Below are positions 4,214-36,481 of a stretch of 64,000 nt of DNA, in pieces (position 1 is the stretch's first letter; every line of letters starts with the position of its first letter). The notes beneath the pieces were generated by a model, which was not told the DNA's origin, searched no databases, and saw only the letters and a list, made by a program, of their open reading frames with translations. Source of the DNA: Candidatus Uhrbacteria bacterium (GTDB lineage: Bacteria > Patescibacteriota > Patescibacteriia > UBA9934); assembly GCA_963822405.1 (NCBI GenBank), contig CAWGHH010000002.1, forward strand, positions 23,569-87,568, given 5' to 3'. The translations under genes and the position numbers were made by a program.

Positions 4214-4240
4214 ATGTTATACTTGTGCGGTAATAATACT

Positions 4241-4522
4241 ATGTCTAACAAGGAGGATATGTCTACCCCAATTTCACAGGATAAACCAAAGCGTCCAGCT
4301 ATGAAAAAATCAAAAGTGATGTCTACTGCTTCTTCCTCGCCACGGGCTGGAAACGTGTGCCACAGCTGTAATCTTTTGCCAGTTGGTAGCATTGATTTGA
4401 CGGCTCTTATGCTTGTGCTAGTGTTCTCTCTGTCCGCAGTATTGTTCACCACGGTTTACGCGCTTAACGTGTCTCACGCAAAAGTAAATCAACTCCAGGG
4501 CCAGCTCACTTACCAAAAATAA
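4241..4522 (+). CDS. hypothetical small membrane-anchored protein
   Basis: ORF with C-terminal TM segment. An AAGGAGG sits at 4250-4256, so the alternative start at 4259 is also possible. No homology recognised. Confidence 0.4.
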
Positions 4523-4527
4523 ATTCT

Positions 4528-9231: not shown

Positions 9232-9771
9232 ATGTCAGCCTATCGTCAAAAATTTCTTGCCTTCCGCGTGTACCGGTTTAAGGACACGGACGCGTACGGG
9301 CAGTTGTATGACATCCATGCTGACCGCATACGTCGGTTTTTAATCTTCAAAGTTCCTCGCAAAGAGGACGCTGAAGAAATTACCAGTGAGGTATTTTTAC
9401 GAGGTTGGGAGTACATGACTTCAAGCTCAGTGGATAACGTTGGCGCCTTGCTCTTCCGCATAGCCAGAAACATTACGGCTGACTTCTACCGCAGGAATGT
9501 GCCAGTCGACAATGTCGAGGATTCAATCCTTGAACAGATCCCTGCCGGTACGGTACTCGCCGAAGAAGTGGCTCAGAAGATAGAGAGTGATGATCTCATT
9601 GAGAAGCTGAAACTTCTTAAAGAAGATTATAGAGAAATCCTAGTCATGCGGTATTTGAACGAGATGAGCATAGGCGAGATTGCGGATACGCTTGAGCAGA
9701 CGCCAAATAACGTGAGGGTCACTCTACATAGAGCGAAGAAAGCTCTCCAGGAGATAGTCGTTAGTCGCTAG
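9232..9771 (+). CDS. ECF-type RNA polymerase sigma factor (sigma-70 regions 2 and 4)
   Basis: Region 2 (FLRGWEY...RIARNITADFYRR) and region 4 HTH (EMSIGEIADTLEQTPNNVRVTLHRAKKAL). Confidence 0.88.
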   Translation: MSAYRQKFLAFRVYRFKDTDAYGQLYDIHADRIRRFLIFKVPRKEDAEEITSEVFLRGWEYMTSSSVDNVGALLFRIARNITADFYRRNVPVDNVEDSILEQIPAGTVLAEEVAQKIESDDLIEKLKLLKEDYREILVMRYLNEMSIGEIADTLEQTPNNVRVTLHRAKKALQEIVVSR

Positions 9772-9802
9772 TCATTAGTCTATAGTCAAAGAACCTGATC
9801 CT

Positions 9803-10933
9803 GTGTCCAACTTATTTTCACAATTAAAGAGTTTGAAAAATAACCCCCAAGCTGGGGCTCTTTCTCTATCTGAGCATGAGACGGCTAAGGCTCGTCTCCT
9901 TTCCCGCGTGAGTGCAGACCTGCCAGCAGGCAATGAATCCAAGTCTTATGTTTCCTGGTATGTCAGTTCTTTCATTTCTAAGCCAGTGACCGTTGGCGTA
10001 GCGGTAGTGACAATTTTTACGGGAAGTTTGTCTACGGTAAGCGCTGCGTCTTCCAGTATTCCTGGCGATACCTTATATACGGTGAAGCGCATTACAGAAC
10101 AGGCACAGCTAAAACTGGCCTCACTAGACCGTCGAGCGATCCTTCACACGGAGTTCGCAGAACGCCGGTTGCGGGAGGCAGTCGAACTGCGGTCAGCTGA
10201 CACGGTTGACTCAGCTCATCAGACACTCGCTAAAACAGCCATGGTTGAGTATGCCTCAGAATTATTGCAAGCCTCGGCTGATCTGAAAAACTTGAAGAAC
10301 AATGTTGGTTCCTCGGCAGCTCTCGCAGTTGTCACAGATGTCCAGAACAAGATTGATTCAATGAAGGCGGTGATTGAGGAAACGGCTTCCACTAACTCTA
10401 CTTCAGCTGCTGGCACAGAAACTGTTGACGCCAAGCAAGCAGTAAAAGAAACCCAGGAGGTTGCTACCACGGTTGCGGTAGACGTACATGAGCAAGAAGC
10501 CACTGATAAATCTAGCCAAGAATTAAAGGCGATGTTTACAAAAGAACTTGGTTCTATAGAAGCCAGGCAGACCTTTGACGAACATAGACTGCAAACTATT
10601 GAAAAGAACGTGATCGGAAATGAGATGTTTGAGGGCGTGGCGGGAATTCCAGACAGTGATGATCTAAAAAGACTGAACTACGTTATTAAGCAAACCAAGC
10701 TCCAGATTCCAGAAGCCATGAATGGCTTTGCCGCTGGGGGATACAGAACAGCCTTCGCCACACTTCAAGGAGTAGACCAAGAACTGCTGACACTTGAAGC
10801 AAAGATTGCTGAGGTAGAAATCCTGATCATGCAAACTAGAGACGCTTCTGAGAAAGCGGGGTTAGAAACCCCGCCTTCCGAAACGCCGACATCCGATCTG
10901 GAAACCCCGCCTTCTGCGGCGCCAATGCCATAG
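9803..10933 (+). CDS. putative anti-sigma factor-like membrane protein (DUF5667-like, coiled-coil)
   Basis: Immediately downstream of the ECF sigma; one TM segment (VTVGVAVVTIFTG), then a long coiled-coil region. The C-terminal ETPPSETPTSDLETPPS tail is encoded by a GC palindrome. Confidence 0.5.
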   Translation: MSNLFSQLKSLKNNPQAGALSLSEHETAKARLLSRVSADLPAGNESKSYVSWYVSSFISKPVTVGVAVVTIFTGSLSTVSAASSSIPGDTLYTVKRITEQAQLKLASLDRRAILHTEFAERRLREAVELRSADTVDSAHQTLAKTAMVEYASELLQASADLKNLKNNVGSSAALAVVTDVQNKIDSMKAVIEETASTNSTSAAGTETVDAKQAVKETQEVATTVAVDVHEQEATDKSSQELKAMFTKELGSIEARQTFDEHRLQTIEKNVIGNEMFEGVAGIPDSDDLKRLNYVIKQTKLQIPEAMNGFAAGGYRTAFATLQGVDQELLTLEAKIAEVEILIMQTRDASEKAGLETPPSETPTSDLETPPSAAPMP

Positions 10934-11100
10934 ATACAAATCTCACGTATTTCCTTCACGAGCGATCTCAAACGAGGTCGCTCGGAAAGGGACTGCGTTT
11001 AACGCATCCCGGGTAAGCATGCTCAAAGGTCGGGGCCGCAGGCCCATGCAAACCTCTATCTCTTTACCCCTTAAAAGGGGAAAATGGTTCTTGCAATTTT

Positions 11101-13059
11101 ATGCAACATGTTCTAGAAACTGGAAAGCGCGCAATCTCCGCAGCAGTAGCTGCCGCGACGATCGCTTTCTCAATCGGTGCTGGTGTTCTAATGACCCCAA
11201 GCACTTCTCACGCTGCAGCTGCCGGTGACCGCTTCCGAAGCGTTTCACTTTCTACTGTCTATTACTACGGTTACGACGGCATGCGTTACACGTACCCAAA
11301 CCTAAGCACTTATAAGAGCTGGCACATGACAGCTTCTGGCGCAGCTGATTTCAGCGGCGTTAGCACAGTTTCAGATAGCACGATCTCGGATATCACCTTG
11401 GGTGGTAACGTCGTCATGCGTGGCGGTTCCTACTGGATCAAGGTCACTTCTGACCCTAAGGTCTACGCGGTCGCCCGCAACGGTAACATTCACTGGATTG
11501 AATCAGAAGCTGTCGCCACCTCATTCGCTGGCTCCGACTGGAACCAGAGAATCGTTGACGTAGCCGATGTTTTCTTCACAGATTACACGGTTGGCTCCTC
11601 ACTCATGAGTGCCACTGCGTATGACGGTGTGATGTTCTCAGACGCTGGTAGCACATACCTCGCATGGGGTGGTGCAAAGCGTTTGGTATCCGCTGCAGGT
11701 ATGTCTGCTAACGGTCTCCAGTCCATGTTCGTCATGGATGGATCCGGTGTTGTAAGCAGCGCATTGTCTGCTGGTTCTGATTTGACTGTTAAGGACAGCG
11801 AAGTCTCTGACGACGCTCAGACTGTAGTTGGTTCATCGGTAGTTACTGGCGCCCTCACGGTGTCCGCAGCTTCCTCTATGCCAGCTGGTGCCTCCCTTCC
11901 AGGTGGCGCTAACTCAGTCCAGGTCTACTCCTTCAACGTGAAGGCAGGTAGCGAAGCTGCTACGTTCAGTGGTGTAACTCTCTCCATGATTGGAGCTGGT
12001 TCCACTAACAACATCAGCAACGCCTACTTGTACGAAGGTGCCACACGTTTGACGGAATCACGCACTGTGAACTCCTCAACACGTCAGGTTTCCTTCAACA
12101 ACTTGAACCGCGCTATTGCTGCAAACGCAATGCACACCTACACGGTGCGCGTAACCGTTTCTACGTCCCAGACGGCAGCTGATACGTTTGGCTTCAAGAT
12201 CGGAGCTTCTGCTGACGTAGTGTCCGCAGGATCCGTAGGCGGTTCCTTCCCAATCTCGGGAAACATCTTTACCCTCACCGGTACTGATGCTGGAACTCTC
12301 TTGATCACAAAGACCGGAACAATCGCTGACCCAACGGTTGGCGCACAGGACGCAGAAATTGGTCAGTTCAAGGCAGCCGCAAACGGCTCCGAGGCTGCAG
12401 ACATTTCCGCAATCACTCTTAAGATTGACAATGCTTCAGACCACGCAGACTTCCGTCTCTGGGATGGCAACGTTGAACTTTCTAAGGGTGTTAACTCCTC
12501 CGGTGACTGGGTAGTCTTTGATCTTTCCGCACATCCTTTCCACATCAACGAAGGTGGTAATAACATCTTCTCAGTGACTGCGGATATTGGCGGACAGTCA
12601 CTTGACACAGTTAAGGTTTACGTTGACAACGCAGTTGACGTTGTCGCTATCGGTGGTGACTACGGATTTGGCCTGACAATTGACATCAGCACCGGTTCTA
12701 CCGGTTACGATGGTACTTCTTGTACGGCTTCCACCGGTGAATGTTCCTTCAGCACGGTTAAGGGTGGCAAGCTCACGCTTGTACTCAACGGCCCAGCTGC
12801 TGGCGACATCCAGGTAGATTCTCAGGATCAGACTCTCTTGAAGTTCGCTGTGACCGCTACTCAGTACGTCAACATCAAGGACCTTGATATCAACGTCTAC
12901 GGTGATGACGACGCAGATGCAGACGCATTTGACGGAACTGAAGCTGACACAGATGTAAGCACGGACGGTTTGATCGGTGCTACTTCCGCTAACATCACGG
13001 ACATCAAGATCATTAACGCTGACACTGGCGCTGTGATCATGGGTCCTGATGGAGCTTGA
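11101..13059 (+). CDS. large secreted Ser/Thr/Gly/Ala-rich surface (S-layer/adhesin-like) protein, N-terminal part
   Basis: Signal peptide (AISAAVAAATIAFSIGAGVLMTPSTSHAAAAG); 652 aa of low-complexity beta-rich sequence. Ends at a TGA that overlaps the next ORF by 11 nt in the +1 frame. Confidence 0.6.
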   Translation: MQHVLETGKRAISAAVAAATIAFSIGAGVLMTPSTSHAAAAGDRFRSVSLSTVYYYGYDGMRYTYPNLSTYKSWHMTASGAADFSGVSTVSDSTISDITLGGNVVMRGGSYWIKVTSDPKVYAVARNGNIHWIESEAVATSFAGSDWNQRIVDVADVFFTDYTVGSSLMSATAYDGVMFSDAGSTYLAWGGAKRLVSAAGMSANGLQSMFVMDGSGVVSSALSAGSDLTVKDSEVSDDAQTVVGSSVVTGALTVSAASSMPAGASLPGGANSVQVYSFNVKAGSEAATFSGVTLSMIGAGSTNNISNAYLYEGATRLTESRTVNSSTRQVSFNNLNRAIAANAMHTYTVRVTVSTSQTAADTFGFKIGASADVVSAGSVGGSFPISGNIFTLTGTDAGTLLITKTGTIADPTVGAQDAEIGQFKAAANGSEAADISAITLKIDNASDHADFRLWDGNVELSKGVNSSGDWVVFDLSAHPFHINEGGNNIFSVTADIGGQSLDTVKVYVDNAVDVVAIGGDYGFGLTIDISTGSTGYDGTSCTASTGECSFSTVKGGKLTLVLNGPAAGDIQVDSQDQTLLKFAVTATQYVNIKDLDINVYGDDDADADAFDGTEADTDVSTDGLIGATSANITDIKIINADTGAVIMGPDGA

Positions 13060-15214
13060 CTCTGCAGTAGACGGTGGAAATGACGCCGTGCAGACCATTG
13101 ACTTCACTGATGACTTCTCCATGAACGCAGGTGAAACTTTGAACCTTGCGGTTACGGCAGACATTGCTAGCGGTGCAGCCTCTGGCACAGCCTTTGGTGC
13201 AAAGTTCGTTCGCTCAGGTCTAGTAACAGAAGATGGCAACGGTGATGCACTCGCAACATCTGACATCATCCCTGGTACTGACATCACTGGTTACAACCAG
13301 GTTGCTCGTGCTGCTTCCTTGGCCTTTGCCTTGGCTAGCACACCTTCTAGCACTACTACTGTTGACGGTACACAGAACGTTTCTGTGGTCGGCTTCACAG
13401 TAACTGCTGGCTTGGCTTCTCCAGTTACTGTTACTGATTTGACTCTCTCTGCATACGGTGAAGACACAGCAGTGGGCGGTACTTACACCATTGGTGGTGG
13501 AGCTCCGGACACCAACGCAGACGTTAACGATTACGTTGACTCCTGCTCACTCTATGACGGTGCTACACGCGTAGCTGGTCCAGAGGCTCCAGCAACTAAC
13601 GGTCAGACGATCCGCTTCAACTCTATGAGCTGGACGATTGCTGCCGGTGGTGTAAAGAACCTCACAGTACAATGTAACTTTGCCAACACTTCTACGGCTG
13701 GCAATGCTTACTTCTCCTTTGACATCGCAACCGTACTTACGGACGTTGTTGCAGAAGATTCTTCTAGCAACGCGATTGACGTAACGGGTGACGCAGCTAA
13801 CGGTGGTGTGACTCCTACTCGCACTGTAACGTTGGCCGACTCCGGCACACTTGCAGTAACGGTAGCTTCTGGTACTCCTAGCGCTGACTTTATCCTCACG
13901 GGTACAAACAACGCAGAGGTAGCAGAATATCGTTTCACAGCTACTAACGAATCCTTCAACGTCACCACGCTCGAATTCAAGGAATTTGCAGCTCAGAATG
14001 ACGGAATTGGTGCTGATTCTTCCGCATACGCTAACAACATCTCTCTCGTGACCCTCTCTTACCCTAAGGCCGACGGCACAATGGGTACGGCTACTGCGTC
14101 TATGTCAGCAAACGCTGCAACGTTTACTGGTCTAACCATGTACGTACCGGTAGGAACTCCGAAGGATGTAAAGGTATACGTGAACACCCCAGCTTCTGAT
14201 CGTAACTCTGGTGGCTCCGCTACCAGCAACGAGAAGATTCGCATGACGTTCTCTAACGGTGACGGATCTGGCACTGAATCATTCAAGGCGACTGGAGCAG
14301 GCTCCGGTTACACACTTGATGAATCAACCAAGTCTGATATCACTACTGGTGTACCGGCTTTCGTAGTCCGCGAAACCAAGCCAGTGATCACTCTCAGCGC
14401 TTCCTCACCTTCCGGTAGTGTCGTCGCTGGTCGCATCGAAGCTCTCCGCTTTAACGTAGCGGCTTCTGCTAACCAGGATGTAGTATTGAACACACTTACG
14501 TTCAAGATGACATCAACAGACAACGCAGGCACTCCAACTCTCTGGAACGGTTGTGACACTAACGGTGTATCTCAGACACTTACGTCAGACTTCGATTTCT
14601 ACGATCTGAAGGACGCAAGTACGACTCTTGATACAGCAGATACCGATTGGACCTTCTTGAAGGCCACCGGTGCAGTTTGCGACACAGCAGCTGCTTCACT
14701 CGGTTTCGTAAAGATCACTCTTCCAGTCGCCTCGATTGTTACTAAGGGTACGAGCCACTCGTATGCCTTGTACTTCGATGCAACCGGTGCAAGCTCAAGC
14801 AGCGATGATTCGCTTCGCTTCGACCTTCCTACGGATCCGATCGCGAATACGTATTTGGTTGATCAGGCATATGTTGTTGCTGTCACTGCAGTCAACACTG
14901 ATTTCACGGCTGCAGCCGCAGGAGGATATACGCTTGGTGACGTTATTTGTGTGGACGCAGACGCTAGTGGCGTTTGTGACGCAGCGGAAGAAAAGGTATT
15001 GGTCGTGGTAGACGGTGGAACTGCTCTTACAGTAGTTCGCGGGTACCTCGGATCTACACCAGCAGCTGATGCGGCTGGAAACTTCCTACGTATGCCAGGT
15101 TCTCTTCTATGGCAGGATGACGGTTCTTCAACCGTTGCCCTTCCTTTGCAGGAATACTGGAGCTCGTCACTTGTTGACAACCTACCGGTCACCGGCGGAA
15201 CATTGGTCTTCTAA
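13049..15214 (+). CDS. large Ser/Thr/Gly/Ala-rich surface protein, C-terminal part (probably continuous with 11101..13059 across a frameshift)
   Basis: Same composition and repeat style as the upstream ORF; no signal peptide of its own; the frame switches at 13049-13059. Confidence 0.6.
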   Translation: MELDSAVDGGNDAVQTIDFTDDFSMNAGETLNLAVTADIASGAASGTAFGAKFVRSGLVTEDGNGDALATSDIIPGTDITGYNQVARAASLAFALASTPSSTTTVDGTQNVSVVGFTVTAGLASPVTVTDLTLSAYGEDTAVGGTYTIGGGAPDTNADVNDYVDSCSLYDGATRVAGPEAPATNGQTIRFNSMSWTIAAGGVKNLTVQCNFANTSTAGNAYFSFDIATVLTDVVAEDSSSNAIDVTGDAANGGVTPTRTVTLADSGTLAVTVASGTPSADFILTGTNNAEVAEYRFTATNESFNVTTLEFKEFAAQNDGIGADSSAYANNISLVTLSYPKADGTMGTATASMSANAATFTGLTMYVPVGTPKDVKVYVNTPASDRNSGGSATSNEKIRMTFSNGDGSGTESFKATGAGSGYTLDESTKSDITTGVPAFVVRETKPVITLSASSPSGSVVAGRIEALRFNVAASANQDVVLNTLTFKMTSTDNAGTPTLWNGCDTNGVSQTLTSDFDFYDLKDASTTLDTADTDWTFLKATGAVCDTAAASLGFVKITLPVASIVTKGTSHSYALYFDATGASSSSDDSLRFDLPTDPIANTYLVDQAYVVAVTAVNTDFTAAAAGGYTLGDVICVDADASGVCDAAEEKVLVVVDGGTALTVVRGYLGSTPAADAAGNFLRMPGSLLWQDDGSSTVALPLQEYWSSSLVDNLPVTGGTLVF

Positions 15215-15371: not shown

Positions 15372-15944
15372 ATGGACAGCCTTTTGAGCAAAATCTATCA
15401 GTCACAAAAAACGATCCTTACTAGTAAGGATTTGGCTTTGATTTGGCGAGAAACTGATCAAAATAATTTAAAAACGAAAATTTCATACTACGTAAAGCAA
15501 GGGTCGTTACTCCGTTTATCTAGGGGAATTTTCGCGAAAGATAGTAACTATTCTCCCAGGGAGCTGGCCACGAGTGTATATACTCCGTCGTACATAAGTT
15601 TTGAAACAGCGCTTCGTGACGCTGGCATGATTTTTCAACATCACGATACTATTTTTGTGGCTGGGCCATGGTCTAAGACGGTGCGCATTGACAAGACGTC
15701 TATTGTATTTCGGAAACTTAAAGAGAGCGTATTGTATAACCAGGAAGGGATAGAAAGAAACGAAACATATAGTATTGCTTCACCAGAGCGTGCATTTTTA
15801 GATATGATTTATCTTTTTCCAGAATATCACTTTGATAATCTTCGAGTATTAAATTGGGAGAAGTGCTTCGAATTAGTAAGAATATACAGCAATGCACAGC
15901 TGGAGAAGCGGTTAAGAAAGTATCAAAACATTTATGCTAAATAG
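15372..15944 (+). CDS. AbiEi-like antitoxin/transcriptional regulator (type IV TA)
   Basis: 190 aa; overlaps the following AbiEii-like gene by 11 nt. N-terminal wHTH-like region plus a C-terminal domain of AbiEi size. The assignment rests mainly on synteny. Confidence 0.55.
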   Translation: MDSLLSKIYQSQKTILTSKDLALIWRETDQNNLKTKISYYVKQGSLLRLSRGIFAKDSNYSPRELATSVYTPSYISFETALRDAGMIFQHHDTIFVAGPWSKTVRIDKTSIVFRKLKESVLYNQEGIERNETYSIASPERAFLDMIYLFPEYHFDNLRVLNWEKCFELVRIYSNAQLEKRLRKYQNIYAK

Positions 15945-16648: not shown

Positions 16649-16840
16649 ATGCAACAAGAGCAAGAGAGTAGTGATGCGAAGAAGATATATATTAGATGCA
16701 CTCATTGCGGAGATGAAATATTTTGGAATACTCACAAAAGCCTGACGTACTGTCAGTGCGAGCAAATTTCTGTTGATGGTTGTGAATACTACGTACGAAT
16801 CAACGGTAACAAGGGTGATTATGAGCATGTACAGCGTTGA
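16649..16840 (+). CDS. small zinc-ribbon protein (63 aa; CxxC...CxC...C)
   Basis: CTHCGDE and CQCEQISVDGC cysteine pairs. Starts 4 nt after the abiEii stop, so it is probably co-transcribed. Confidence 0.45.
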   Translation: MQQEQESSDAKKIYIRCTHCGDEIFWNTHKSLTYCQCEQISVDGCEYYVRINGNKGDYEHVQR

Positions 16841-16857: not shown

Positions 16858-16903
16858 TTGACATTTCTGCATATTTCAGCTATTTTAGTGAAGTTAACTT
16901 CAC
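16858..16903 (+). promoter_or_regulatory. promoter TTGACA-N17-TATTTT followed by palindrome GTGAAGTTAACTTCAC
   Basis: -35 at 16858-16863 and -10 at 16881-16886; a 16-bp perfect palindrome at 16888-16903 lies just upstream of the GTG start of the MopE-like gene. Confidence 0.35.
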
Positions 16904-16916
16904 TCTGGGAGATACC

Positions 16917-19397
16917 GTGAAAAACAGCATTCTATTGTTCGTGTTCCTGACCGCGTGCATTTTCCCCCATGAACCATTGGTGGATGCGGATGGGGACGGT
17001 TATTGGGATTTTGAGGACTGTAATGACTCGGATGCGTCGATTAACCCCGGCGCGGAAGACATTATGTGCGAGGAGGTTGATCGCAACTGTGACGAGAACG
17101 TGGCGTACCCGCGCAATAGCACGTTCACGGACGCTGATGGTGATGGATTCGGTGACCCCGAAGCCTACATCGATCCATGTGCTGCCGTTCAGGGGGTCGA
17201 CAACCGCGACGATTGCAACGACGCGGATCCGGAGATTCATCCCGAACTTGAAGATCCGGCCGACGGAGTCGACAACGACTGCGACGGTGAGGTTGACGAG
17301 GACGCAGTGGTCGACGAAGACCTGGACGACGACGGTTACGGTGTGGACGACTGTGACGACACGAACGCGGGCATCAATCCCGATGCGGAGGAAATCTGCG
17401 ACGGGGTCGACAACGACTGTAACGGTTTGGTTGACGATGACGATACCGGTGTGGCCAGTCAGGCCACTTGGTACGTTGACGTTGACCATGACGGTTACGG
17501 GACGAGCGTGTCAGTCCTGGCTTGTGAAGAGCTGTCTGGCTACTCGGCCGACAACGGGGATTGCAATGACGAGAATTCGGACATTCACCCCGGGGCTGAT
17601 GAGTGGGACTGCTTGGATGTCACGGACTACAACTGTGACGGTCAAACGGGTTACACCGACGCTGACCTGGACTGCAGTCCTGCCTGTGAGGACTGTAACG
17701 ACCAGGACAAGAATTCCTATCCCGGCGCGTCAGAGGTTTGTGATAACGCCGACAACGATTGCAACAACATCGTGGACGATCCTGGCACGGTCACTGGCCA
17801 GAGTCCGTTCTACGCAGACCTTGATCATGACAGCTACGGAGACTTGAACTCTTTTGTGCTGGCTTGTTCTGTGCCAAACGGGTACACGGGCGACTCGACC
17901 GACTGCGATGACGGGAAAACACTCGTGCATCCAGGCGGCGTAGAGGTGTGTGACTCGAACAGCGTAGACGAAGACTGTGACGGAACAGCGAACGACGCTG
18001 ATAGTTCCGTGACCGGTAAATCTACGTTCAATAAAGATGTGGACGGTGATGGGTACGGCGGAGTGCTGACCATCGCCGCGTGCGTTGCGCCTCCGGGTTA
18101 TGTTGCCTTGATTGGCGACTGTGATGACTCGAGCGTTGCGTATCACCCGGGTGCACCCGAAGCTAGTTGTACAGATTCGCATGATTACAACTGTGACGGC
18201 GTAACTGGATATGTTGATCAAGACGGAGACGGCTCTCCGGCTTGCGAAGACTGCAACGACAACAACCCCAGCATTCATACCGGCGCCACAGAATTGTGCA
18301 ACGGTGTGGATGATAACTGTAACGGAACCGTAGACGGTTCAACTGAGGCCACGAATACAAATACTTACTACTTGGACGCAGATGGTGACACGTTCGGGAA
18401 ACTGAGTGCGACCACTAAGGCTTGTTCGTTACCGTCTGGCTACTCGTCGAATTCAACGGACTGTGATGACTCGAAAGTTGGGGTTAATCCCTCAGCGGTC
18501 GAAGTCTGCAACAGTATCGACGACAACTGTAACGGCCTGGCGGACGACGCCGACCCTGGCGTAACTGGTCGCGCTACGTACTATCGTGATGCGGACGGGG
18601 ACACTTTCGGGAGTTCGTCGACTACCAAGCTTGGTTGCGTTCAGCCTCCCGGTTACGTAGTCAGTTCGACTGACTGCAACGACGTCGTCAGCGCAATCAA
18701 TCCGAGCGCAGTTGAAATCTGCGACGTGAAAGACAACGACTGCGACGGCTTCGTTGATGACCAAGACCCGTCCATCACCGGCCAGACCAAGTGGTACGTG
18801 GATACGGATGGTGACGGTTACGGGAATCCGAACTCGTCGAAGCTCGTCTGTTCGCAACCGGCTAACTACGTCGTCAGCTCGACGGACTGCGATGACGCAA
18901 AGTCGGCCGTCAATCCGAGCGCGGTTGAGATCTGCGACGGGATAGACAACAACTGCGTTGGCGGCATTGACGACGGTCTAGCTACCAGTATTTGGTACGC
19001 CGACGTAGATGGTGACGGTTATCGGAATGTGAGTTCGTCGGTCACGGCGTGCGCTCGGCCTGCGGGCTATGTAGCGTCAACCGCCGGAGCGGATTGCGAT
19101 GACACAAACTCGCACGCTCAGACTACGGTTGGACCGGAGGTTTGCGACGGCTTCGACAATAACTGCGATGGTAATATCGACGAAACGTTCGGGACGCAGC
19201 CTTGGTACCCGGATACGGACGGCGATATGTACGGCCTGTTGTCGGGCATGGTTCGTAGCTGTTACCAGCTGCCTGGCTACGTTGACAACAAGTACGACTG
19301 CGACGACACGCGCAGTTATGTCCATCCGTCAGCGCAGGAGCTGTGCAACGGGATTGATGACAACTGCAACGTAACCGTTGACGAGAACTGCATTTGA
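16917..19397 (+). CDS. lipoprotein with about 17 tandem MopE-like Cys/Asp-rich putative metal-binding repeats
   Basis: GTG start; lipobox LTAC. The unit ...DCDDxxxxxxPGAxExCDGxDNDCDGxxDD and WYxDxDGDGYG recurs about every 70 aa. About 12% Asp and 8% Cys. Confidence 0.7.
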   Translation: MKNSILLFVFLTACIFPHEPLVDADGDGYWDFEDCNDSDASINPGAEDIMCEEVDRNCDENVAYPRNSTFTDADGDGFGDPEAYIDPCAAVQGVDNRDDCNDADPEIHPELEDPADGVDNDCDGEVDEDAVVDEDLDDDGYGVDDCDDTNAGINPDAEEICDGVDNDCNGLVDDDDTGVASQATWYVDVDHDGYGTSVSVLACEELSGYSADNGDCNDENSDIHPGADEWDCLDVTDYNCDGQTGYTDADLDCSPACEDCNDQDKNSYPGASEVCDNADNDCNNIVDDPGTVTGQSPFYADLDHDSYGDLNSFVLACSVPNGYTGDSTDCDDGKTLVHPGGVEVCDSNSVDEDCDGTANDADSSVTGKSTFNKDVDGDGYGGVLTIAACVAPPGYVALIGDCDDSSVAYHPGAPEASCTDSHDYNCDGVTGYVDQDGDGSPACEDCNDNNPSIHTGATELCNGVDDNCNGTVDGSTEATNTNTYYLDADGDTFGKLSATTKACSLPSGYSSNSTDCDDSKVGVNPSAVEVCNSIDDNCNGLADDADPGVTGRATYYRDADGDTFGSSSTTKLGCVQPPGYVVSSTDCNDVVSAINPSAVEICDVKDNDCDGFVDDQDPSITGQTKWYVDTDGDGYGNPNSSKLVCSQPANYVVSSTDCDDAKSAVNPSAVEICDGIDNNCVGGIDDGLATSIWYADVDGDGYRNVSSSVTACARPAGYVASTAGADCDDTNSHAQTTVGPEVCDGFDNNCDGNIDETFGTQPWYPDTDGDMYGLLSGMVRSCYQLPGYVDNKYDCDDTRSYVHPSAQELCNGIDDNCNVTVDENCI

Positions 19398-19494
19398 CCT
19401 ACAGCCCCGCGTTTCATCCGCCCTTGCGCACAAGGGAGCTAGGATGGGACGTGGGGTTGCTCTTTTTCTCAGGTTTTTCTATACTTTCACCTAT

Positions 19495-20193
19495 ATGACC
19501 TTGTCTAGAACGCGTTTGATTATTGGCCTTGTAGCTGTAGTTGTTCTACTTTCTCTTGGTTACGGCGTTTTTCTGCTTTTTGGTCCTTCGGCTAAGTATA
19601 GAGGCTTAACTACACATATCCAGGTAGACATGGATGACTCTACGCGTGCATATGTCCAGAATCAGTTGAATACTGCTAAGGCATCACTCGCCGCCGCTAA
19701 AGCAAAAGGCGGGGAAATTGATTTGAACATGTATGACGCGGTTGCTAGCCAGGCATTTATTCTTGGTGATTTGGTCACCGCTCGTGAAGCGCTTGAAGCT
19801 GAGCTGAAGGGCAACCCAATAAACTACGGCGCCACAAATTCCTACGGCAACGTTCTGGAAAAAATGGGGGATTATGCTGGCGCTCGTCAGGCGTTTGAAA
19901 AATCCATTGAGCTTAGTGCCGGCCAAGGTCCAGAGAGTTTCTATATTAATTTGATCGAGCTTCTTGAGACTCGTTTCCCGGATGAAAAGGACACAGTCAA
20001 GACGATCCTTGAGGGTTACGTAGCCAAGCGCGGACAGACCGCTTGGTCCATGGTAAAGCTTGGCCGATGGTATGAGGCCGCTGGGGATTGTCAGCGTGCT
20101 ATTGATCATTTCTCGGTTGCCAAAACCCTGTCGCCAACTAACCAGAGCATTACGGACGAACTTCAAGCCTTGAAAGTGTCGTGCGTGAAGTAG
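19495..20193 (+). CDS. membrane-anchored tetratricopeptide-repeat protein
   Basis: N-terminal TM segment (LIIGLVAVVVLLSLGYGVFLLF), then TPR-like helical repeats (AYVQNQLNTAKA..., GDYAGARQAFEKSIEL). The ATG at 19495 is preferred over the upstream ORF start at 19378. Confidence 0.6.
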   Translation: MTLSRTRLIIGLVAVVVLLSLGYGVFLLFGPSAKYRGLTTHIQVDMDDSTRAYVQNQLNTAKASLAAAKAKGGEIDLNMYDAVASQAFILGDLVTAREALEAELKGNPINYGATNSYGNVLEKMGDYAGARQAFEKSIELSAGQGPESFYINLIELLETRFPDEKDTVKTILEGYVAKRGQTAWSMVKLGRWYEAAGDCQRAIDHFSVAKTLSPTNQSITDELQALKVSCVK

Positions 20194-20215: not shown

Positions 20216-22291
20216 ATGCGCTTTCCAGTGAAATTTCTCGCTGGCGCCGCTATGGGAGCGGTTTTTATTTCGCAAACATTTCCCTATGCGTTCGCCAGGA
20301 CTCCGAATGATCCTTTTTTTGTTAATCAATGGTATTTGCGGATGATTGGCATGGAAACCGCTTGGGATACGGCCACTGGCGATAGCTCGATGATTGTTGC
20401 TGTGCTTGATACAGGTGTAGACCTTGATCATCCTGATCTGGCCGGGAATCTTTGGAAAAATTCGAAAGAAATTCCAGGCAATAACATTGATGATGACAGG
20501 AACGGATATATTGATGACGTAGAGGGTTGGGATTTTGTCGACCATGACAACAACCCAGTCCCAAATGGAACTGTGGCAGACCCAAACTCTTCGTCGCTGG
20601 CGCTGTCTCACGGCACACTCATTGCTGGCATTATTGGCGCGGTTGCAGATAATAGCCTTGGTTACGCTGGCATAGATTGGCAGGTGAAAATTATGCCTCT
20701 TCGTATTTTGAATGAAGAAGGCGGTGGGGGAGAGGAAGGGGCAATAAACGCAATTCATTACGCGGTAAAAAACGGTGCCAAAGTTATTAATCTAAGTTTC
20801 GTTGGCAACGATTCGGCGCCAGCCTTGAGGCAAGCTGTGGCCGATGCGTATCACGCCGGTGTTGTGGTTGTAGCCGCGCTTGGAAATGACGCAAAAGATG
20901 TGAACTTGTCACCAGTTTATCCGGCTTGTTTTCGCTCAGCTACAGAAGATTGGGTGATCGGCGTTTCAGCTACTGATGAAAATGACGCGGAGACTGAATT
21001 CACAAACTTCGGCAACACATGTGCTGACTTGAGCGCGCCTGGAACAAATATTGAAGGACTAACTTTGAGTAACGGCAATGACGGTTTGACTAGCAATCAA
21101 ATTTCTTGGGACGGCACTTCAGCGGCCAGTCCAATGGTAGCTGGCGCAGCGGCCCTGATTCTTTCGGCCTTCCCAACGCTGTCAGTTGATCAGGTTCGAA
21201 CCGCGTTAAAACTATCGGTCGATCCAATTAAAGAAACCGTATCCGGCAAGGGCGCACTTGGCGTTGGCAGATTGAATGTTGGGCGAGCTTTGACTGTGGC
21301 TCAGGCAATTGCCGGCACGGTTCCGGTTATCCCAATAGTCGGCACGCCAACTCAGACTAAGCCTTCAACTGGTACAGTCGGCCTCACTGGTGACGCGTCA
21401 TATTCGTTTATTGCGCTTGGTGCACCGGCCGGCGAGGTACCGAATATTCGAGTGTTTAAGGCTGACGGTACGCCTTACGCTGAATTCTATGCTTTTGCGC
21501 CTACATTTCTTGGTGGCGTTCGGGTTACACTCGCCGATTTAGACGGTGATGGTACGCCGGAAGTTATTGCCTCAGCCGGGAAGGGCGGTGGTCCGCAGAT
21601 TCGAGTGTTTACTGCTACCGGTGCGCTTATCCGCTCATTCTTCGCTTTTGATGAGAAGTCGCGGCAGGGGGTTTCGGTGGCGCTTGGTGACGTAGACGGA
21701 GATTACAGTGACGATATCATTGCAGTAGTTGGCGCGGGGGTGAGTAACGACGCGGTTGTTTTTGGGCAAGACGGAAAGGAGAAGCTCCGGTTTCCGGTGT
21801 CCGGTTTCGTGCCCGGCACACCATTAACAGCCACCGTGGCTGACGTTGATGATGACTTTGATAAAGAAATAGTTTTTGCTGGTTTATCTGGTTCGCCACG
21901 CGTTGCGGTTTATGACAATAACGGCAAGCCACTTGTAGACTTCTTGGCTTACTCGTCAGATATGACCAGCGGTTTGTCACTCGCTGCCGGTGACTTTGAT
22001 GGTGATTCGCGAGACGAGATTGTGACTGCGCCTCACGCGCCAAATTCCGCAAACATCCGCATCTTTAATAAAATCGGGGCGCTTTGGGGACAATTCTCGG
22101 TGACCGATCAGACAACGTCGGGCACGGTCATTTCTGTTTCAGATATGGATGTGGACGGAAATCCCGATATTATCGTTGCGCCTCAGGCTGGTGCTGGCGA
22201 AGTTAGAATTTTTACCCCGCACGGTAGTATTATGGGGACACTTGGTTCTAAGCTTGTTGGATCAAAGGGAACTAATTTGGGCGCGTGGTAA
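20216..22291 (+). CDS. S8 family subtilisin-like serine peptidase with C-terminal FG-GAP/VCBS-like repeats
   Basis: Catalytic triad motifs VAVLDTGVD, HGTLIAGIIGA and GTSAASPMVAGAAALI. C-terminal DLDGDGTPEVI/DVDGDYSDDII/DFDGDSRDEIV repeats. Confidence 0.88.
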   Translation: MRFPVKFLAGAAMGAVFISQTFPYAFARTPNDPFFVNQWYLRMIGMETAWDTATGDSSMIVAVLDTGVDLDHPDLAGNLWKNSKEIPGNNIDDDRNGYIDDVEGWDFVDHDNNPVPNGTVADPNSSSLALSHGTLIAGIIGAVADNSLGYAGIDWQVKIMPLRILNEEGGGGEEGAINAIHYAVKNGAKVINLSFVGNDSAPALRQAVADAYHAGVVVVAALGNDAKDVNLSPVYPACFRSATEDWVIGVSATDENDAETEFTNFGNTCADLSAPGTNIEGLTLSNGNDGLTSNQISWDGTSAASPMVAGAAALILSAFPTLSVDQVRTALKLSVDPIKETVSGKGALGVGRLNVGRALTVAQAIAGTVPVIPIVGTPTQTKPSTGTVGLTGDASYSFIALGAPAGEVPNIRVFKADGTPYAEFYAFAPTFLGGVRVTLADLDGDGTPEVIASAGKGGGPQIRVFTATGALIRSFFAFDEKSRQGVSVALGDVDGDYSDDIIAVVGAGVSNDAVVFGQDGKEKLRFPVSGFVPGTPLTATVADVDDDFDKEIVFAGLSGSPRVAVYDNNGKPLVDFLAYSSDMTSGLSLAAGDFDGDSRDEIVTAPHAPNSANIRIFNKIGALWGQFSVTDQTTSGTVISVSDMDVDGNPDIIVAPQAGAGEVRIFTPHGSIMGTLGSKLVGSKGTNLGAW

Positions 22292-22300: not shown

Positions 22301-23317
22301 ATGAACAAGAAAAATATCTTGGTTACGGGTGGAGCCGGGTTTATTGGTTCATTTTTGTGCGACGCTTTGTTGAAGGAAGGTAATCACGTTATTTGCGTGG
22401 ATAATTTCTCTACCGGCCATGTTAGAAACATCGAATCATTACTTCGCAACCCAGATTTTCAGTTTTTGAAACTCGACATCTCTGTACCGTTTGATCTCGA
22501 ATCATTTCTAGAACTTGAACCGTTCAAGGTGAAGTTCCTGGGCATCCAGGAAATTTATCATCTTGCTTTGCCAACGGCCGTTAAGGGTTTTGAAAAATAT
22601 CGCATGGCTGCGTTACTCGCTAACTCCGTTGGCACGAAGAACGTTCTTGATCTGGCGGTGAAGTACAAGTCACGCGCTCTCCTCACCTCGTCAGCTACAG
22701 TTTACGGTGCTCGAGATGCGAGTATTACTTCTGGCATTGTCGAAACAGAAATGGGCGTTGTTGACCACCTTAATCCTCGCGCCTGTTTTAATGAGGGTAA
22801 GAAATTTGCTGAGACCATGTTCCAGACATATGCGGACGTGTATGACCTTGACTGTAAAATTGCCCGTATCTTCCGGACATATGGTCCGCGTATGCCTCTG
22901 TTCCAGGGTCATCAAATTCCTGATTTCATTTTGAATGTTCTGGAGGGCGTGCCGATTTCTATTATGGGCGACGAACATTCCACGACTACGTTGGCTTATG
23001 TCACGGATGTGGTAGATGGACTGACTCGTTTGATGCGCGCCGAGAAAGGAATTGGTCCAGTTAACCTTGGTAGTGACGTCGAAGTGAAGATTTCGGACGT
23101 CGCTAAGCAGATTATGGCGATTGCGGAGGGTGATGTAGCAATTGCTTATGAACCACAGGCTGCCCATATGGTGACTCTTGGTTTGCCAGCTCTCAACAAG
23201 GCCAGGGAGAAGCTCGGTTGGATTCCGCTTGTTCGGACAGAAGATGGTCTAAAGAAGGCCGTTGATTACGTTCGCGCTAATAAACTGCTTTTGACGAATG
23301 GCGGAAATGGCGGTTAG
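22301..23317 (+). CDS. NAD-dependent epimerase/dehydratase (UDP-glucuronate decarboxylase/UXS-like SDR)
   Basis: N-terminal GGAGFIGSFLCDALL Rossmann motif; extended SDR family; 338 aa. Confidence 0.8.
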   Translation: MNKKNILVTGGAGFIGSFLCDALLKEGNHVICVDNFSTGHVRNIESLLRNPDFQFLKLDISVPFDLESFLELEPFKVKFLGIQEIYHLALPTAVKGFEKYRMAALLANSVGTKNVLDLAVKYKSRALLTSSATVYGARDASITSGIVETEMGVVDHLNPRACFNEGKKFAETMFQTYADVYDLDCKIARIFRTYGPRMPLFQGHQIPDFILNVLEGVPISIMGDEHSTTTLAYVTDVVDGLTRLMRAEKGIGPVNLGSDVEVKISDVAKQIMAIAEGDVAIAYEPQAAHMVTLGLPALNKAREKLGWIPLVRTEDGLKKAVDYVRANKLLLTNGGNGG

Positions 23318-23327
23318 ATAGCGCTAT

Positions 23328-24005
23328 ATGCGCACCGTTGCGGTAATAGCTGGATATAACGAAGAGGCCCGGATTGCGGAAGCAATTAGGGACGCTTTGG
23401 TGTATGTGCCTTTAGTGGTTGTGGTCGACGATGGCAGTCGAGACAGAACCGGCGAAGTAGCCCTTAGTGCTGGGGCACACGTGCTCACTCACATTTTGAA
23501 CCGCGGACAAGGCGCGTCACTGCAGACTGGCATGGACTACGCCTTGCGAGTGTTAGAGGCTGATGTCATTGTTCACTTCGACGCTGATGGTCAAATGCGG
23601 GGGAGTGAGATTCCGATGATGGTCGAGCCGATTCTAACGGGCGAGGCTGACGTAGTGCTCGGTTCTAGGTTTCTTGGCCGTGAGGCGGAGAATATGCCTA
23701 CTATGCGTCGAGTGATGATTCGGTTGGGTGTTCTATTCACTCGCGGTCTTTCCGGAATTAAAGTGACGGACACGCATAACGGGTTTCGGGTGTTGTCGAG
23801 AAACGCCGCGTTAAAAATCCGCATCTCCCTTGATCGCATGGCGCACGCTTCAGAGATTCTCGACATTATCGTGAATAAGCGGTTGAAGTATGTCGAGCGT
23901 CCCGTGACCATTCGCTACAGTGAAGAGACTTTGAAGAAAGGGCAGTCAACGCTTAAGGCAATGGCTACAGCTAAAGATATTTTGAAAAAGAAACTTGTTG
24001 GCTAA
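23328..24005 (+). CDS. glycosyltransferase family 2 (polyprenol-phosphate sugar transferase-like)
   Basis: VVVDDGSRDRT and DADGQ motifs; 225 aa. Confidence 0.82.
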   Translation: MRTVAVIAGYNEEARIAEAIRDALVYVPLVVVVDDGSRDRTGEVALSAGAHVLTHILNRGQGASLQTGMDYALRVLEADVIVHFDADGQMRGSEIPMMVEPILTGEADVVLGSRFLGREAENMPTMRRVMIRLGVLFTRGLSGIKVTDTHNGFRVLSRNAALKIRISLDRMAHASEILDIIVNKRLKYVERPVTIRYSEETLKKGQSTLKAMATAKDILKKKLVG

Positions 24006-24339
24006 TATGATATTTCAAATTGCACTCGTAGTATTTGCAGCCTTCGCCATTTATAAAACTTGGATTCAATATTCAAAAAAAGAAGCGTCCAAATATTGGG
24101 CGATTGCTTTTTCGTGTTTGTGGCTGATAGTGATTGCCGTGGCCCTCGTTCCAAATTTGGCCAACGTGCTCGCGAACCTTGTCGGCATTGGTCGCGGTGC
24201 GGACGTGATTGTTTACTCGGCGATTGTAATTCTGACGTATACGGTTTATCGACTAATGTTGAAGCAACAGAAGTTGTCTGCGGAGATGACGGAACTTGTT
24301 CGCGCGGTAGCCATTGAGAAAGCCAAGAAAGCCAGTTGA
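23995..24339 (+). CDS. DUF2304-family small membrane protein
   Basis: Two TM segments plus a C-terminal amphipathic helix; its position directly after a GT2 gene is the usual context for DUF2304. Confidence 0.55.
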   Translation: MLANMIFQIALVVFAAFAIYKTWIQYSKKEASKYWAIAFSCLWLIVIAVALVPNLANVLANLVGIGRGADVIVYSAIVILTYTVYRLMLKQQKLSAEMTELVRAVAIEKAKKAS

Positions 24340-24351
24340 TCCTCCCCCCGA

Positions 24352-24374
24352 CCCCCTCCACTTCGTGGAGGGGG
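24352..24374. repeat. palindromic repeat family B, copy B5 (CCCCCTCCAC-TTC-GTGGAGGGGG), intergenic
   Basis: 10-bp perfect arms; the flanks 24341-24382 resemble copy B4. Lies between the DUF2304 stop and the GT4 ATG at 24392. Confidence 0.8.
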
Positions 24375-24391
24375 AGGAGCTCACCAATTCT

Positions 24392-25504
24392 ATGAAAATA
24401 GCTATTGTTACCCCTGTTTTCCCTCCTTATAAGGGTGGTATTGGGCATGTGGCCGAGGCACAGGCTAATTCTTTGAAGGCACTAGGACATGAGGTGGTTG
24501 TGTTTGCGCCGTCGACCATGAAGCCATGGTTTTCTTACGGTAATGCCTCCATAACTCCACAACTTCTTTCTAAACTTTATAACTTTGATCTCATTCACGT
24601 TCACTACCCGTGCTACGGAACGGACGTCTTCGCGGCACTCGCCTCGATCGTGCATAAAACGCCCCTTGTGCTCACGTATCACATGAAAGCGGTGACGAAT
24701 GATTGGCGCAATATAATTTTTACTTTACACCGTTGGTTCATTGAGCCGATAATTTTCAAGATCGCTAAAATAGTGTTTGTCAGTACGTTCGAATATGCCG
24801 AGGCTTCCGGTATTCAGCATCCTCATCTTGTCGAAATGCCCTTCGGCGTAGACGGCGCGCGCTTCGCACCCGGTCCGGGTGGCGCGACCTTCCCCCTTCC
24901 AGGGGGCTCGCCCGTAGGGCGGTCTACGCCCGAGGGACCAGAGGGGGTCGCAGGGGCGCGCCTCCTCTTCGTGGGTGGTCTCGACCGCGCACACGACTTC
25001 AAAGGCGTCGACGTTCTTCTCCGAGCCTTTGCCACGCTTCCAGCTTCGGCGAGTTTACTTATTGCCGGCGACGGTGATCTTCGACTATTCTACGAGAGTC
25101 TCGCGCGCGATCTTAAAATTGCGGATCGGGTACAATTTCTTGGTCGAGTTTCTGACGAGGACTTGCCGAACGTATATCGCTCAGCTGATGTTCATGTATT
25201 GCCGAGTATCAATGGTGGCGAGGCTTTTGGTTTAGTTACACTTGAAGCCGCTGCCTCGGGTTTGCCGTCAGTAGTTAGCGACTTGCCTGGGGTTAGAACG
25301 CTCGTCGTAAAGGGTCAGACTGGATACTTGGCCAAGCCTGGAGATATTGATGACTTAGCTTATCAACTGCAAAAACTAGTAGATCACCCAGAAGACGCCA
25401 TAATTATGGGGGCAGCGGCTAGAGTTAGGGTCATGGAAAGTTACGACAGCGGGGCTATTGCGCGCTCATTACTCCAGGCGTATAACGGGATTCTGAAGGT
25501 ATGA
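24392..25504 (+). CDS. glycosyltransferase family 4 with an in-frame palindromic-repeat insertion in the interdomain linker
   Basis: MKIAIVTPVFPPYKGGIG N-terminal GT4 motif and C-terminal E..E region (GEAFGLVTLEAAASGLP). The insert FPLPGGSPVGRSTPEGPEGVAGAR corresponds to repeat B2. ATG 24392 is preferred over the upstream ORF start at 24314. Confidence 0.78.
   Translation: MKIAIVTPVFPPYKGGIGHVAEAQANSLKALGHEVVVFAPSTMKPWFSYGNASITPQLLSKLYNFDLIHVHYPCYGTDVFAALASIVHKTPLVLTYHMKAVTNDWRNIIFTLHRWFIEPIIFKIAKIVFVSTFEYAEASGIQHPHLVEMPFGVDGARFAPGPGGATFPLPGGSPVGRSTPEGPEGVAGARLLFVGGLDRAHDFKGVDVLLRAFATLPASASLLIAGDGDLRLFYESLARDLKIADRVQFLGRVSDEDLPNVYRSADVHVLPSINGGEAFGLVTLEAAASGLPSVVSDLPGVRTLVVKGQTGYLAKPGDIDDLAYQLQKLVDHPEDAIIMGAAARVRVMESYDSGAIARSLLQAYNGILKV
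24892..24950. repeat. palindromic repeat family B, composite copy B2 (CCCCCTTCCAGGGGG...GCCCGTAGGGC...GAGGGGGTCG), inside the GT4 CDS
   Basis: Shares the CCCCCTTCCAGGGGG and AGAGGGGGTCG ends with B1/B3, with an extra internal hairpin. Confidence 0.75.
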
Positions 25505-26730
25505 AGATAGGAATCATTACAAACCTATATCCTCCGCATGCTCGTGGGGGAGCGGAAACGGTCATTGTCCGAACAGTGCAAGAACTCCTTGCCCGCGGAC
25601 ATGACGTATTTGTGATTACCGGACAGCCCCGAAGCGAGGGAAAAGGGATACTACTTGATCGTTCTACGGTTGAGCGAATTTACAGATTCTTTCCGCGTAA
25701 CATTTATTTTACTTTGAACGACTACAAGTATCCGTGGTTCATCAGACTTTTTTGGCACATCATTGATGGTTTCTCTGGACATGGCGCGGAGGTTGTTCGA
25801 ACGATCCTCGTTAATGAACAACCAGACGTTGTCATTACGCATAACCTGAAGGGTCTAGGTCTGACTATTCCGCGAGCGATTCGTCAGATGAAGGTGCCAC
25901 ATGTGCACGTCATTCATGATTTGCAGTTGATCGTTCCGTCTGGTCTTGTCATGTTCGGCAAGGAGCAGACGCCGTGGTTTATTGAGCCGATTTACAAAAT
26001 TTATCAGTTAGTTTGTCGAGCCAGGTTTAAGAACCCTGACGTAGTTATTTCTCCTTCTCATTACCTTGAGCGAATGTATCGTCAGGTGCATTTCTTTACG
26101 GGTACAAATATTGAAGTCCTCTCAAACCCAGCGCCAACGTATAACATTTCGCCTAAGAAGGGCCGTTCGGTTGGTCCGTTAAAATTGCTGTTTGTTGGCC
26201 AGCTTTCTCAGCATAAAGGTACAGCGTTTTTGGTCGAGGCCATCTCTACGTTGCCGGTGGATACTCGCCTAATGATTGCTGGTGACGGAGTACTTCGTCG
26301 ATGGACTGAGAAACGGGCAAGCGAGAATGAGCGCATTACTTACTTGGGTTACATGCCACCAGAAGAGTTGATTAATGTGTTCGGTGTGGTTGACGCGCTA
26401 GTGGTACCGAGCTTGTGCTACGAGAATTCGCCAACTGTTATTTACGAAGGACTACAGGCTGGTTTGCCAATTTTGGCTTCTAGGATTGGGGGAGTAGGCG
26501 AGCTGGTAGAAGAAGGTAAAAATGGTTTCTTGTTTATTCCTGGTGATAAGGGTGATTTTTTACGGGCTTTGACCACACTTGATAAACAGAAGGACGAGTT
26601 TGCCCAGCGAAGAGAAGAAATAAGCAAAACAGTGGCCGAGTATTCACTCCCAAAATACGCTGAACACCTTGAACGACTTTGCGCAGAAGCCATCAAGCAC
26701 CGGAAGGAGAGGATGATTGTGGGGAAGTAG
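25501..26730 (+). CDS. glycosyltransferase family 4
   Basis: MKIGIITNLYPPHARGGAETV N-terminus; C-terminal ENSPTVIYEGLQAGLPILASRIGG motif; 4-nt overlap with the previous GT4. Confidence 0.82.
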   Translation: MKIGIITNLYPPHARGGAETVIVRTVQELLARGHDVFVITGQPRSEGKGILLDRSTVERIYRFFPRNIYFTLNDYKYPWFIRLFWHIIDGFSGHGAEVVRTILVNEQPDVVITHNLKGLGLTIPRAIRQMKVPHVHVIHDLQLIVPSGLVMFGKEQTPWFIEPIYKIYQLVCRARFKNPDVVISPSHYLERMYRQVHFFTGTNIEVLSNPAPTYNISPKKGRSVGPLKLLFVGQLSQHKGTAFLVEAISTLPVDTRLMIAGDGVLRRWTEKRASENERITYLGYMPPEELINVFGVVDALVVPSLCYENSPTVIYEGLQAGLPILASRIGGVGELVEEGKNGFLFIPGDKGDFLRALTTLDKQKDEFAQRREEISKTVAEYSLPKYAEHLERLCAEAIKHRKERMIVGK

Positions 26731-35981: not shown

Positions 35982-36060
35982 TTTCATTGTTTCACTGTTG
36001 CGAAAGTATCAAGCAAAAACGGGATTATTACCGATCAATTATTGGCATGCGATTATTAAA

Positions 36061-36453: not shown

Positions 36454-36481
36454 CTACTTCTTTGCTAATGTACCCCGTGAT

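Follow-up and report, generated by a model that had tools for sequence, protein, structure and literature searches.

The stretch of DNA considered here (64,000 nucleotides, hereafter the window) belongs to contig CAWGHH010000002.1 of a Candidatus Uhrbacteria bacterium (assembly GCA_963822405.1) and carries a gene for an 826-residue lipoprotein built almost wholly of tandem repeats of Pfam family PF11617, which is followed on the same strand by genes for a TPR protein and a secreted S8 subtilase (Table 1). A first-pass annotation, made from the sequence alone, had proposed the open reading frame (ORF) of the repeat protein, and it is borne out as a plus-strand ORF with a GTG start and a GGGAG ahead of it; a protein identical to it (P0001) has also been called by gene callers in public assemblies, on a contig of 352,527 bp. 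Promoter-like sites of the kind found upstream of the start codon are no more frequent in the region as a whole than in shuffled sequence (five against 3.2), and the site listed is a consensus match only. That the host is an organism with a small genome is supported by PyrG (CTP synthase), whose gene lies at 43757-45376 of the window and whose product is 64-88% identical to proteins of Patescibacteria and Candidatus Uhrbacteria. The DUF5667 and PEGA proteins and the strong bias of genes towards one strand in the window are consistent with this assignment to the Patescibacteria.

The Pfam search suggested by the first-pass annotation gave a match to PF11617 (Cu-binding_MopE, 'putative metal-binding motif') of 341.7 bits (E 2.2e-104), spread over 13 stretches, where the gathering threshold of the family is 27 bits. 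PF11617 is the sole Pfam family matched in the protein, and a scan of the protein against NCBIfam returned no family. The Cys/Asp core of the family, DC(D/N)D...P.A.E.C..D.DC.G..D, is present in all 13 units. About 17 repeats had been counted previously, but the Pfam stretches, single-unit BLAST, a MAFFT alignment and our own hidden Markov model (HMM) agree on 13. The earlier description of the protein as almost entirely repeats of the WYxDxDGDGYG type was accurate, and agrees with our own consensus, derived from 98 di-units, of TWYxDxDGDGYGx7ACxxPxGYVxxxxDCDDxxAxxxPxAxExCDGxDxDCDGxxDE. When the HMM was applied to all six frames of the window no PF11617-type units were found outside this gene, and there is no second copy of it.

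Two kinds of unit can be recognised, nine of them long (59-73 aa) and four short (about 40-54 aa), and these occur in the order S-L-S-L-S-L-L-S-L-L-L-L-L (S, short; L, long). The short units correspond approximately to the PF11617 core alone. The long units carry an extra N-terminal half, (W/Y)YxDxDGDG(Y/F)G...C..PxGY, which falls outside the Pfam model, since the model spans just the C-terminal 30 residues of each long unit. From the identities between corresponding units (51% for units 4 and 7, 47% for units 5 and 8 and 50% for units 6 and 9) units 4-6 and 7-9 are seen to be the two products of an ancient three-unit duplication. This segment (17466-18575) includes a distinctive junction, DEWDCLDVTDYNCDG, after which comes a short unit starting with SPACEDCND. 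The H/N/Y position that precedes the Pro is not conserved across the units.

Table 1. Positions, in the window, of the repeat lipoprotein gene, its parts and the two genes downstream of it
Feature	Position	Strand	Basis and remarks
PF11617-repeat lipoprotein gene	16917..19397 (stop codon included)	+	ORF, 826 aa, GTG start
Promoter-like TTGACA / 17 nt spacer / TATTTT	16858..16886	+	10/12 consensus matches; 31 nt 5' of start codon
Shine-Dalgarno-like GGGAG	16908..16912	+	5 nt before GTG; read from sequence
Signal peptide and lipobox, residues 1-14, MKNSILLFVFLTAC	16917..16958	+	L-T-A-C; Cys14 the predicted lipidated residue
Unit 1, residues 20-68, short, 3 Cys	16974..17120	+	Unit alignment, HMM, BLAST
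Unit 2, residues 69-132, long, without third Cys	17121..17312	+	Unit alignment, HMM
Unit 3, residues 133-183, short	17313..17465	+	Unit alignment, HMM
Units 4-6, residues 184-369, long-short-long; first copy of three-unit duplication	17466..18023	+	Identity matrix
Units 7-9, residues 370-553, long-short-long; second copy of three-unit duplication	18024..18575	+	Identity matrix
Units 10-11, residues 554-691, both long; segment modelled with AlphaFold2	18576..18989	+	
Units 12-13, residues 692-826, both long; residue 825 an additional Cys	18990..19394	+	
TPR protein gene, membrane-anchored, downstream	19444..20193	+	Pfam TPR; orthologues 61% (L082) and 58% (L084) identical, same position
Secreted S8 subtilase gene, C-terminal FG-GAP region	20216..22291	+	PF00082, PF13517, PF01839; orthologues 69% (L082) and 72% (L084) identical

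Overlapping shadow ORFs on both strands, to which the first-pass annotation had drawn attention, are indeed present (185, 292, 182 and 121 aa), and they arise because there are few stop codons in frames +1 and -0 across the repeat gene (20 and 10, respectively, in about 826 codons). The idea that the repeat ORF might itself be a spurious gene is ruled out by orthology, synteny and its conserved columns. Tandem Repeats Finder detected no DNA-level repeat within the gene, and on this ground recent expansion and slippage-driven phase variation were both rejected; the array is therefore old and not prone to slippage.

The N-terminus, MKNSILLFVFLTAC, fits a short lipoprotein signal peptide with the LTAC lipobox that had been recognised before. 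The pattern used to assign proteins to the bacterial lipoproteins, [LVI][ASTVI][GAS]C after an N-terminal signal peptide, is found here with Cys14 as its cysteine. A lipobox-like Cys, defined by a loose pattern, lies within the first 40 residues of 76 of 121 relatives, and two orthologues have the lipobox-like motifs LVGC (P0028) and ASAC (P0043). Neither Lgt nor LspA was found among the scanned ORFs of the window. The protein is rich in Asp (18.3%), Gly (9.8%) and Cys (6.3%, or 52 residues), and in the mature chain of about 812 residues 185 acidic residues face 22 basic ones, so that its net charge is near -160 and its pI about 4. His and Met are scarce in the mature protein, with 11 and 3 residues respectively.

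The family to which the gene belongs is very large, and the gene is unexceptional within it. A word-indexed search recovered at least 7,500 relatives, and when 1.84 billion cluster representatives were scanned exhaustively with HMMER, 40,326 clusters, formed at 50% identity, were retrieved at E<=1e-3 and 9,459 at E<=1e-30. Proteins of this kind share a 30-residue core, DC(D/N)Dx6PxAxExCxGxDxDCxGxxD, an optional N-terminal half, WYxDxDGDGYG..C..PxGY, a period of 66-71 aa in tandem arrays, and an N-terminal lipobox or signal peptide. Among the best 121 matches the median number of units is 15, with a main period of 66-71 aa, and the longest PF11617 arrays extend to 3,785 aa. The array had been thought unusually large, but with 13 units it is modest in size for the family, and the 826 residues of the protein compare with 1,000-3,785 aa for most of the top matches. 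Many relatives contain additional domains (C-type lectin, legume lectin, RCC1, FG-GAP, fibrinogen C, Kelch, beta-helix and Fz), with Lectin_C present in 17 of 40, whereas the protein described here has no such passenger domain. It differs also in that its gene belongs to a Patescibacteria genome and forms a conserved trio there with the TPR and S8/FG-GAP genes.

Members that have been named are called 'MopE-related protein' or 'putative metal-binding motif-containing protein' and come mainly from the Myxococcota and Bacteroidota. A scan of a genome collection that does not include the source genome likewise returned mostly metagenome-assembled genomes (MAGs) of Myxococcota, together with one Uhrbacteria MAG in which the protein has a different architecture. 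In this MAG (L033, 42-3104) a protein of 1020 aa mixes short PF11617 units with thrombospondin-type-3-like DxDxDGxxDxCD segments, and its N-terminal region looked peptidase-like. The motif is therefore found in other Patescibacteria too, in a different setting. Several MAGs with close relatives (L002, L007-L010 and others) bear the labels Enterobacterales, Rickettsiales or Klebsiella pneumoniae, which are probably wrong for these bins, as most of the matches are Myxococcota-like.

Comparison with the closest relatives proved informative about the history of the array. These are P0043 (53% identity, 849 aa), P0028 (54%, 875 aa) and P0035 (about 47-50%, 1026 aa), which are held by three related loci, L082, L083 and L084. 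P0043 has 13 units with the same pattern of short and long units as the present array, and all but one of the 13 units here find their best match in P0043 in the unit of corresponding position. The array has therefore been inherited whole, as a fixed structure of 13 modules that are not interchangeable, and the inheritance of the gene is vertical. The order array, TPR, S8/FG-GAP recurs in all three loci, where it is followed by an epimerase and glycosyltransferases, and the neighbouring proteins are 58-72% identical to those of the related loci. A repeat array of this kind had been considered odd for an organism with a small genome, a view which does not sit well with the existence of co-linear orthologues with conserved neighbours in related genomes. 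No terminator-like site was detected between the repeat gene and the TPR gene in a terminator scan, and the two are possibly co-transcribed.

The spacing of the cysteines, which the first-pass annotation had suggested as a check on the repeats, is kept at 13-15-7 in most of the long units. Among 1421 long units from 121 family members all four Cys are retained in 97%, and every unit keeps Cys2 and Cys4. Joint loss of Cys1 and Cys3 occurs 15 times, when about 0.5 joint losses would be expected if losses were independent. This covariation suggests that the long units contain two disulfides, Cys1-Cys3 and Cys2-Cys4. In the present protein units 1-3 have three Cys each and unit 5 has five, and the additional Cys at residue 825 lies two residues from the C-terminus.

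The structure of units 10-11 was predicted with AlphaFold2 from the alignment of 98 di-units, and the model (pLDDT 96.0, pTM 0.80) consists almost wholly of loops, interrupted by a small number of short strands and one-turn helices. The pTM of this two-unit model suggests a defined orientation between neighbouring units. The full-length model (pLDDT 82, pTM 0.32) has no global packing, and each long unit in it shows the same two to three short strands and is otherwise coil as assigned by DSSP. As modelled, the protein would be a string of small loop-rich modules; the beta-solenoid that had been guessed at finds no counterpart in the AlphaFold2 and DSSP results, which contain no stacked coils. 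Foldseek searches of the PDB with the two-unit and full-length models returned nothing at E<=0.001. Sequence and profile searches of the PDB returned residues 5-54 of MopE* and otherwise only sub-threshold matches to AOAH, dockerin and caltractin. The sub-threshold PDB matches as a whole (the N-terminus of the AOAH large subunit, dockerin, caltractin and thrombospondin-1) are all Ca2+-associated modules.

Analogy with well-characterised motifs points to Ca2+ as the best-supported ligand of the repeats. The protein contains 18 [DN]x[DN]x[DN]G motifs, compared with 1.4 in composition-matched shuffles, and 11 strict DxDxDG motifs, compared with 0.5. Each long unit has two loops of the Dx[DN]xDG type, DxDGDG and D(N/D)(D/N)C(D/N)G, and the Asp columns of both are invariant or nearly so in the 98 di-units and in 40 full-length relatives. 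It has been established that Dx[DN]xDG binds Ca2+ in a near-identical manner in at least 12 folds, with DADGDG a structurally documented instance (PMC3123361). Tucker et al. (PMC3278476) aligned the C-rich domain of teneurin to PF11617, and this domain, which is stapled by disulfides, coordinates three Ca2+ in the manner of thrombospondin T3 (PMC9058538). Thrombospondin type 3 repeats and the teneurin C-rich domain resemble the present units in that Asp-rich Dx[DN]xDG-type loops are interleaved with Cys and secondary structure is scarce, their fold being organised by Ca2+ and disulfides (PMC9058538). They differ in the number and spacing of their Cys and in that the long unit adds a small beta-sheet, and the resemblance may be one of analogy rather than homology.

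The only solved structure that recurred in every search (E 0.93, 0.5 and 2.4-9) is the N-terminal module of the AOAH large subunit (PDB 5W78, 5W7A-F). The segment FKDVDSDKYS...RGYHWRGRDCNDSDESVYPG...DSNCNG of this module can be aligned to the full length of a long unit (about 81 columns, 26-27% identity, rmsd 3.5-4.3 A), all of these matches being below significance. The AOAH module is unlike the present units in being a single copy fused to a GDSL lipase and in having neither Cys1 nor Cys3. It reportedly binds Ca2+.

Taken with the lipobox and the covariation of the cysteines, these observations make it reasonably probable that the protein is a Ca2+-stabilised, disulfide-stapled, lipid-anchored surface stalk; the probability of any specific partner is much lower. 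We infer the pairing of the disulfides, the binding of Ca2+, exposure at the surface and the role as stalk or adhesin in the following way. Removal of the signal peptide would leave a lipid-anchored extracytoplasmic chain of about 812 residues, made up of 13 small modules. Four elements make up each long module, namely the loop DxDGDG(Y/F)G, a very small three-stranded sheet, the segment DC(D/N)D...P.A.E.C and the loop D(N/D)(D/N)C(D/N)G..D(D/E), and the two disulfides would staple it. Each of the acidic loops most likely binds Ca2+, as happens in thrombospondin type 3, in the C-rich domain of teneurin and in further Dx[DN]xDG proteins, and the bound Ca2+ would then order the highly charged chain into an extended, strongly anionic stalk on the cell surface. 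The arrays of relatives carry lectins and other binding domains, which suggests that arrays of this type generally serve as spacers or as scaffolds for presentation; here the array stands alone with each of its positions conserved, and therefore the array itself is probably the interacting surface. Its role would be that of an adhesin or spacer, or of a layer in the envelope retaining divalent cations, probably in concert with the TPR membrane protein and the S8/FG-GAP protease, whose genes are conserved alongside. It is unlikely, though worth stating, that the 13-module array is a calcium-rigidified attachment organelle which binds a partner cell and is matured or released by the TPR and S8/FG-GAP proteins. 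If true, this would provide a first function for PF11617 arrays and for a conserved surface cluster of the candidate phyla.

Several points weigh against the calcium-stabilised stalk. No solved structure matches the protein significantly, so that Ca2+ coordination rests on motif analogy. In the PDB profile search with the unit neither teneurin nor thrombospondin appeared at E<=10, thrombospondin-1 was a non-significant Foldseek match (E 4.8), and the spacing in teneurin is one residue off that of PF11617. A search of the literature on PF11617, Cu-binding_MopE and MopE-related proteins found no functional study of such arrays. The disulfide map is drawn from covariation, and the number of Cys in the mature protein, 51, is odd. 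With this count and three Cys in each of units 1-3, at least one Cys must therefore be unpaired or paired between units. About 25 disulfides would in addition need an oxidising envelope or an oxidase.

The name of the family suggests something different, namely that the repeats form a sponge for copper or other transition metals, with Cu, Zn or Fe sequestered at the surface for uptake or detoxification. Carboxylates can bind Cu(II) and other divalent cations non-selectively, which together with the Pfam name and description (Cu-binding_MopE) speaks for such a role, and the Asp-rich N-terminal 24 residues of MopE*, which lie within the motif, may add weak Cu(II) binding (Ve et al., PMC3423442). 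MopE had been attributed to Myxococcus, but its source is Methylococcus capsulatus, the motif being merely abundant in Myxococcota. In the M. capsulatus protein MopE* (PDB 2VOV), which is considered here with CorA of Methylomicrobium album, the PF11617 motif is present at the N-terminus as a single copy. This region is disordered and metal-free in the crystal, and the high-affinity Cu(I) site, formed by His132, His203 and kynurenine130, lies outside it in the beta-domain (PMC3423442); the 'Cu-binding' name is therefore no evidence for a transition-metal sponge. The alignment of the repeat protein with 2vov_A (E 1e-6) is limited to residues 5-54, and by PDB alignment and Pfam the Cu(I)-binding beta-sandwich of MopE/CorA with its His-His-kynurenine ligands is not in the repeat protein, which is therefore not a MopE orthologue. 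Furthermore, the repeats have no conserved His or Met, their Cys covary like disulfides and not like free thiolate ligands, and the hard-oxygen geometry of Dx[DN]xDG favours Ca2+. A copper sponge is thus improbable. Of the functions offered in the first-pass annotation, we infer that surface Ca2+ binding or an adhesin is to be favoured and the metal sponge disfavoured, with the Cu(I) site lying outside the motif.

An equally improbable explanation is that the protein is an inert envelope spacer or a remnant repeat protein, in which the acidic residues just keep the chain extended and hydrated. The low pTM of the full-length model would be in keeping with this, as would the lack of a partner or enzymatic domain and the faster divergence of the array than of its neighbours (53% identity against 61-69%). 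It is difficult to reconcile, however, with the near-invariance of the Asp of both loops, which implies selection on the side chains, with the retention of the order of 13 units at 53% identity, or with the absence of any DNA-level repeat that would point to recent expansion of junk sequence. Many Patescibacteria live attached to host cells, and the lineage thus raises the further possibility that the array is a host-attachment adhesin of an episymbiotic cell, processed by the S8/FG-GAP protease, with Ca2+ serving only as scaffolding. This overlaps with the model of a calcium-stabilised stalk, and a lipid anchor, the fusion of arrays to lectins in relatives and the conserved clustering of the gene with others for surface proteins and a protease would all suit it; so would the individual conservation of the 13 unit positions between orthologues, which suggests surfaces that are not interchangeable. 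Yet the protein has no recognisable binding domain, nothing links the present organism to a host, similar arrays are abundant in free-living Myxococcota and Bacteroidota, and synteny alone does not show functional coupling. We regard such an adhesin as rather unlikely, if less so than the sponge or the inert spacer.

The calcium-stabilised stalk bears on a family of at least 40,000 clusters for which there is no experimentally determined structure or function and whose database name appears to indicate the wrong metal. By analogy, a module that is stapled by disulfides and binds Ca2+ is better supported than a copper site, and 'Cu-binding_MopE' matches in metagenome surveys should accordingly not be equated with copper homeostasis genes. 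Also a little beyond routine annotation is an array of 13 modules inherited position by position inside a conserved surface-protein cluster of a Patescibacteria lineage. The fold is predicted with confidence by AlphaFold2 and has no significant counterpart in the PDB, and the two-unit fragment offers a concrete and cheap target for experiment.

Upstream of the array the gene for a 721-aa protein without a Pfam match (13049-15214) has an orthologue, 64% identical, directly upstream of the array in L082. Between it and the array the window contains a 190-aa partner ORF (15372-15944), an AbiEii toxin gene (PF08843, 15934-16644) and a DUF7695 ORF (about 16649-16840). The orthologous locus in L082 has neither the AbiE-type pair nor the DUF7695 ORF, and the segment 15372-16840 therefore looks like a mobile toxin-antitoxin insertion in the window. 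Further upstream are genes for an ECF-type sigma factor (9232-9771) and a DUF5667 protein (9803-10933), the latter followed by two for large proteins without Pfam matches (11101-13059 and 13049-15214), and it is possible that 9232-15214 constitutes a sigma-controlled surface-protein cluster. In L083 a second, shorter PF11617 protein (392 aa, 4117-5845) is encoded immediately upstream of the orthologue, with a gene for a Y1 transposase beside it; the window has no counterpart of this local paralogue.

The window also encodes, at 55097-57613, a P-type cation ATPase in which the domains Cation_ATPase_N and Cation_ATPase_C give the architecture of a Ca2+/Mg2+-type P2 pump. It is possibly relevant to the handling of divalent cations, and no link between it and the repeat gene was found. 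The regions 22301-26730 and 34102-51969 contain genes for sugar epimerases and dehydratases, many GT2 and GT4 glycosyltransferases and an O-antigen ligase-like Wzy_C protein, as well as the cell-wall genes for MraY, FtsW, MurG and Mur ligases. The window is thus mostly envelope-related, with nearly all of these genes on the plus strand and the GC skew positive throughout.

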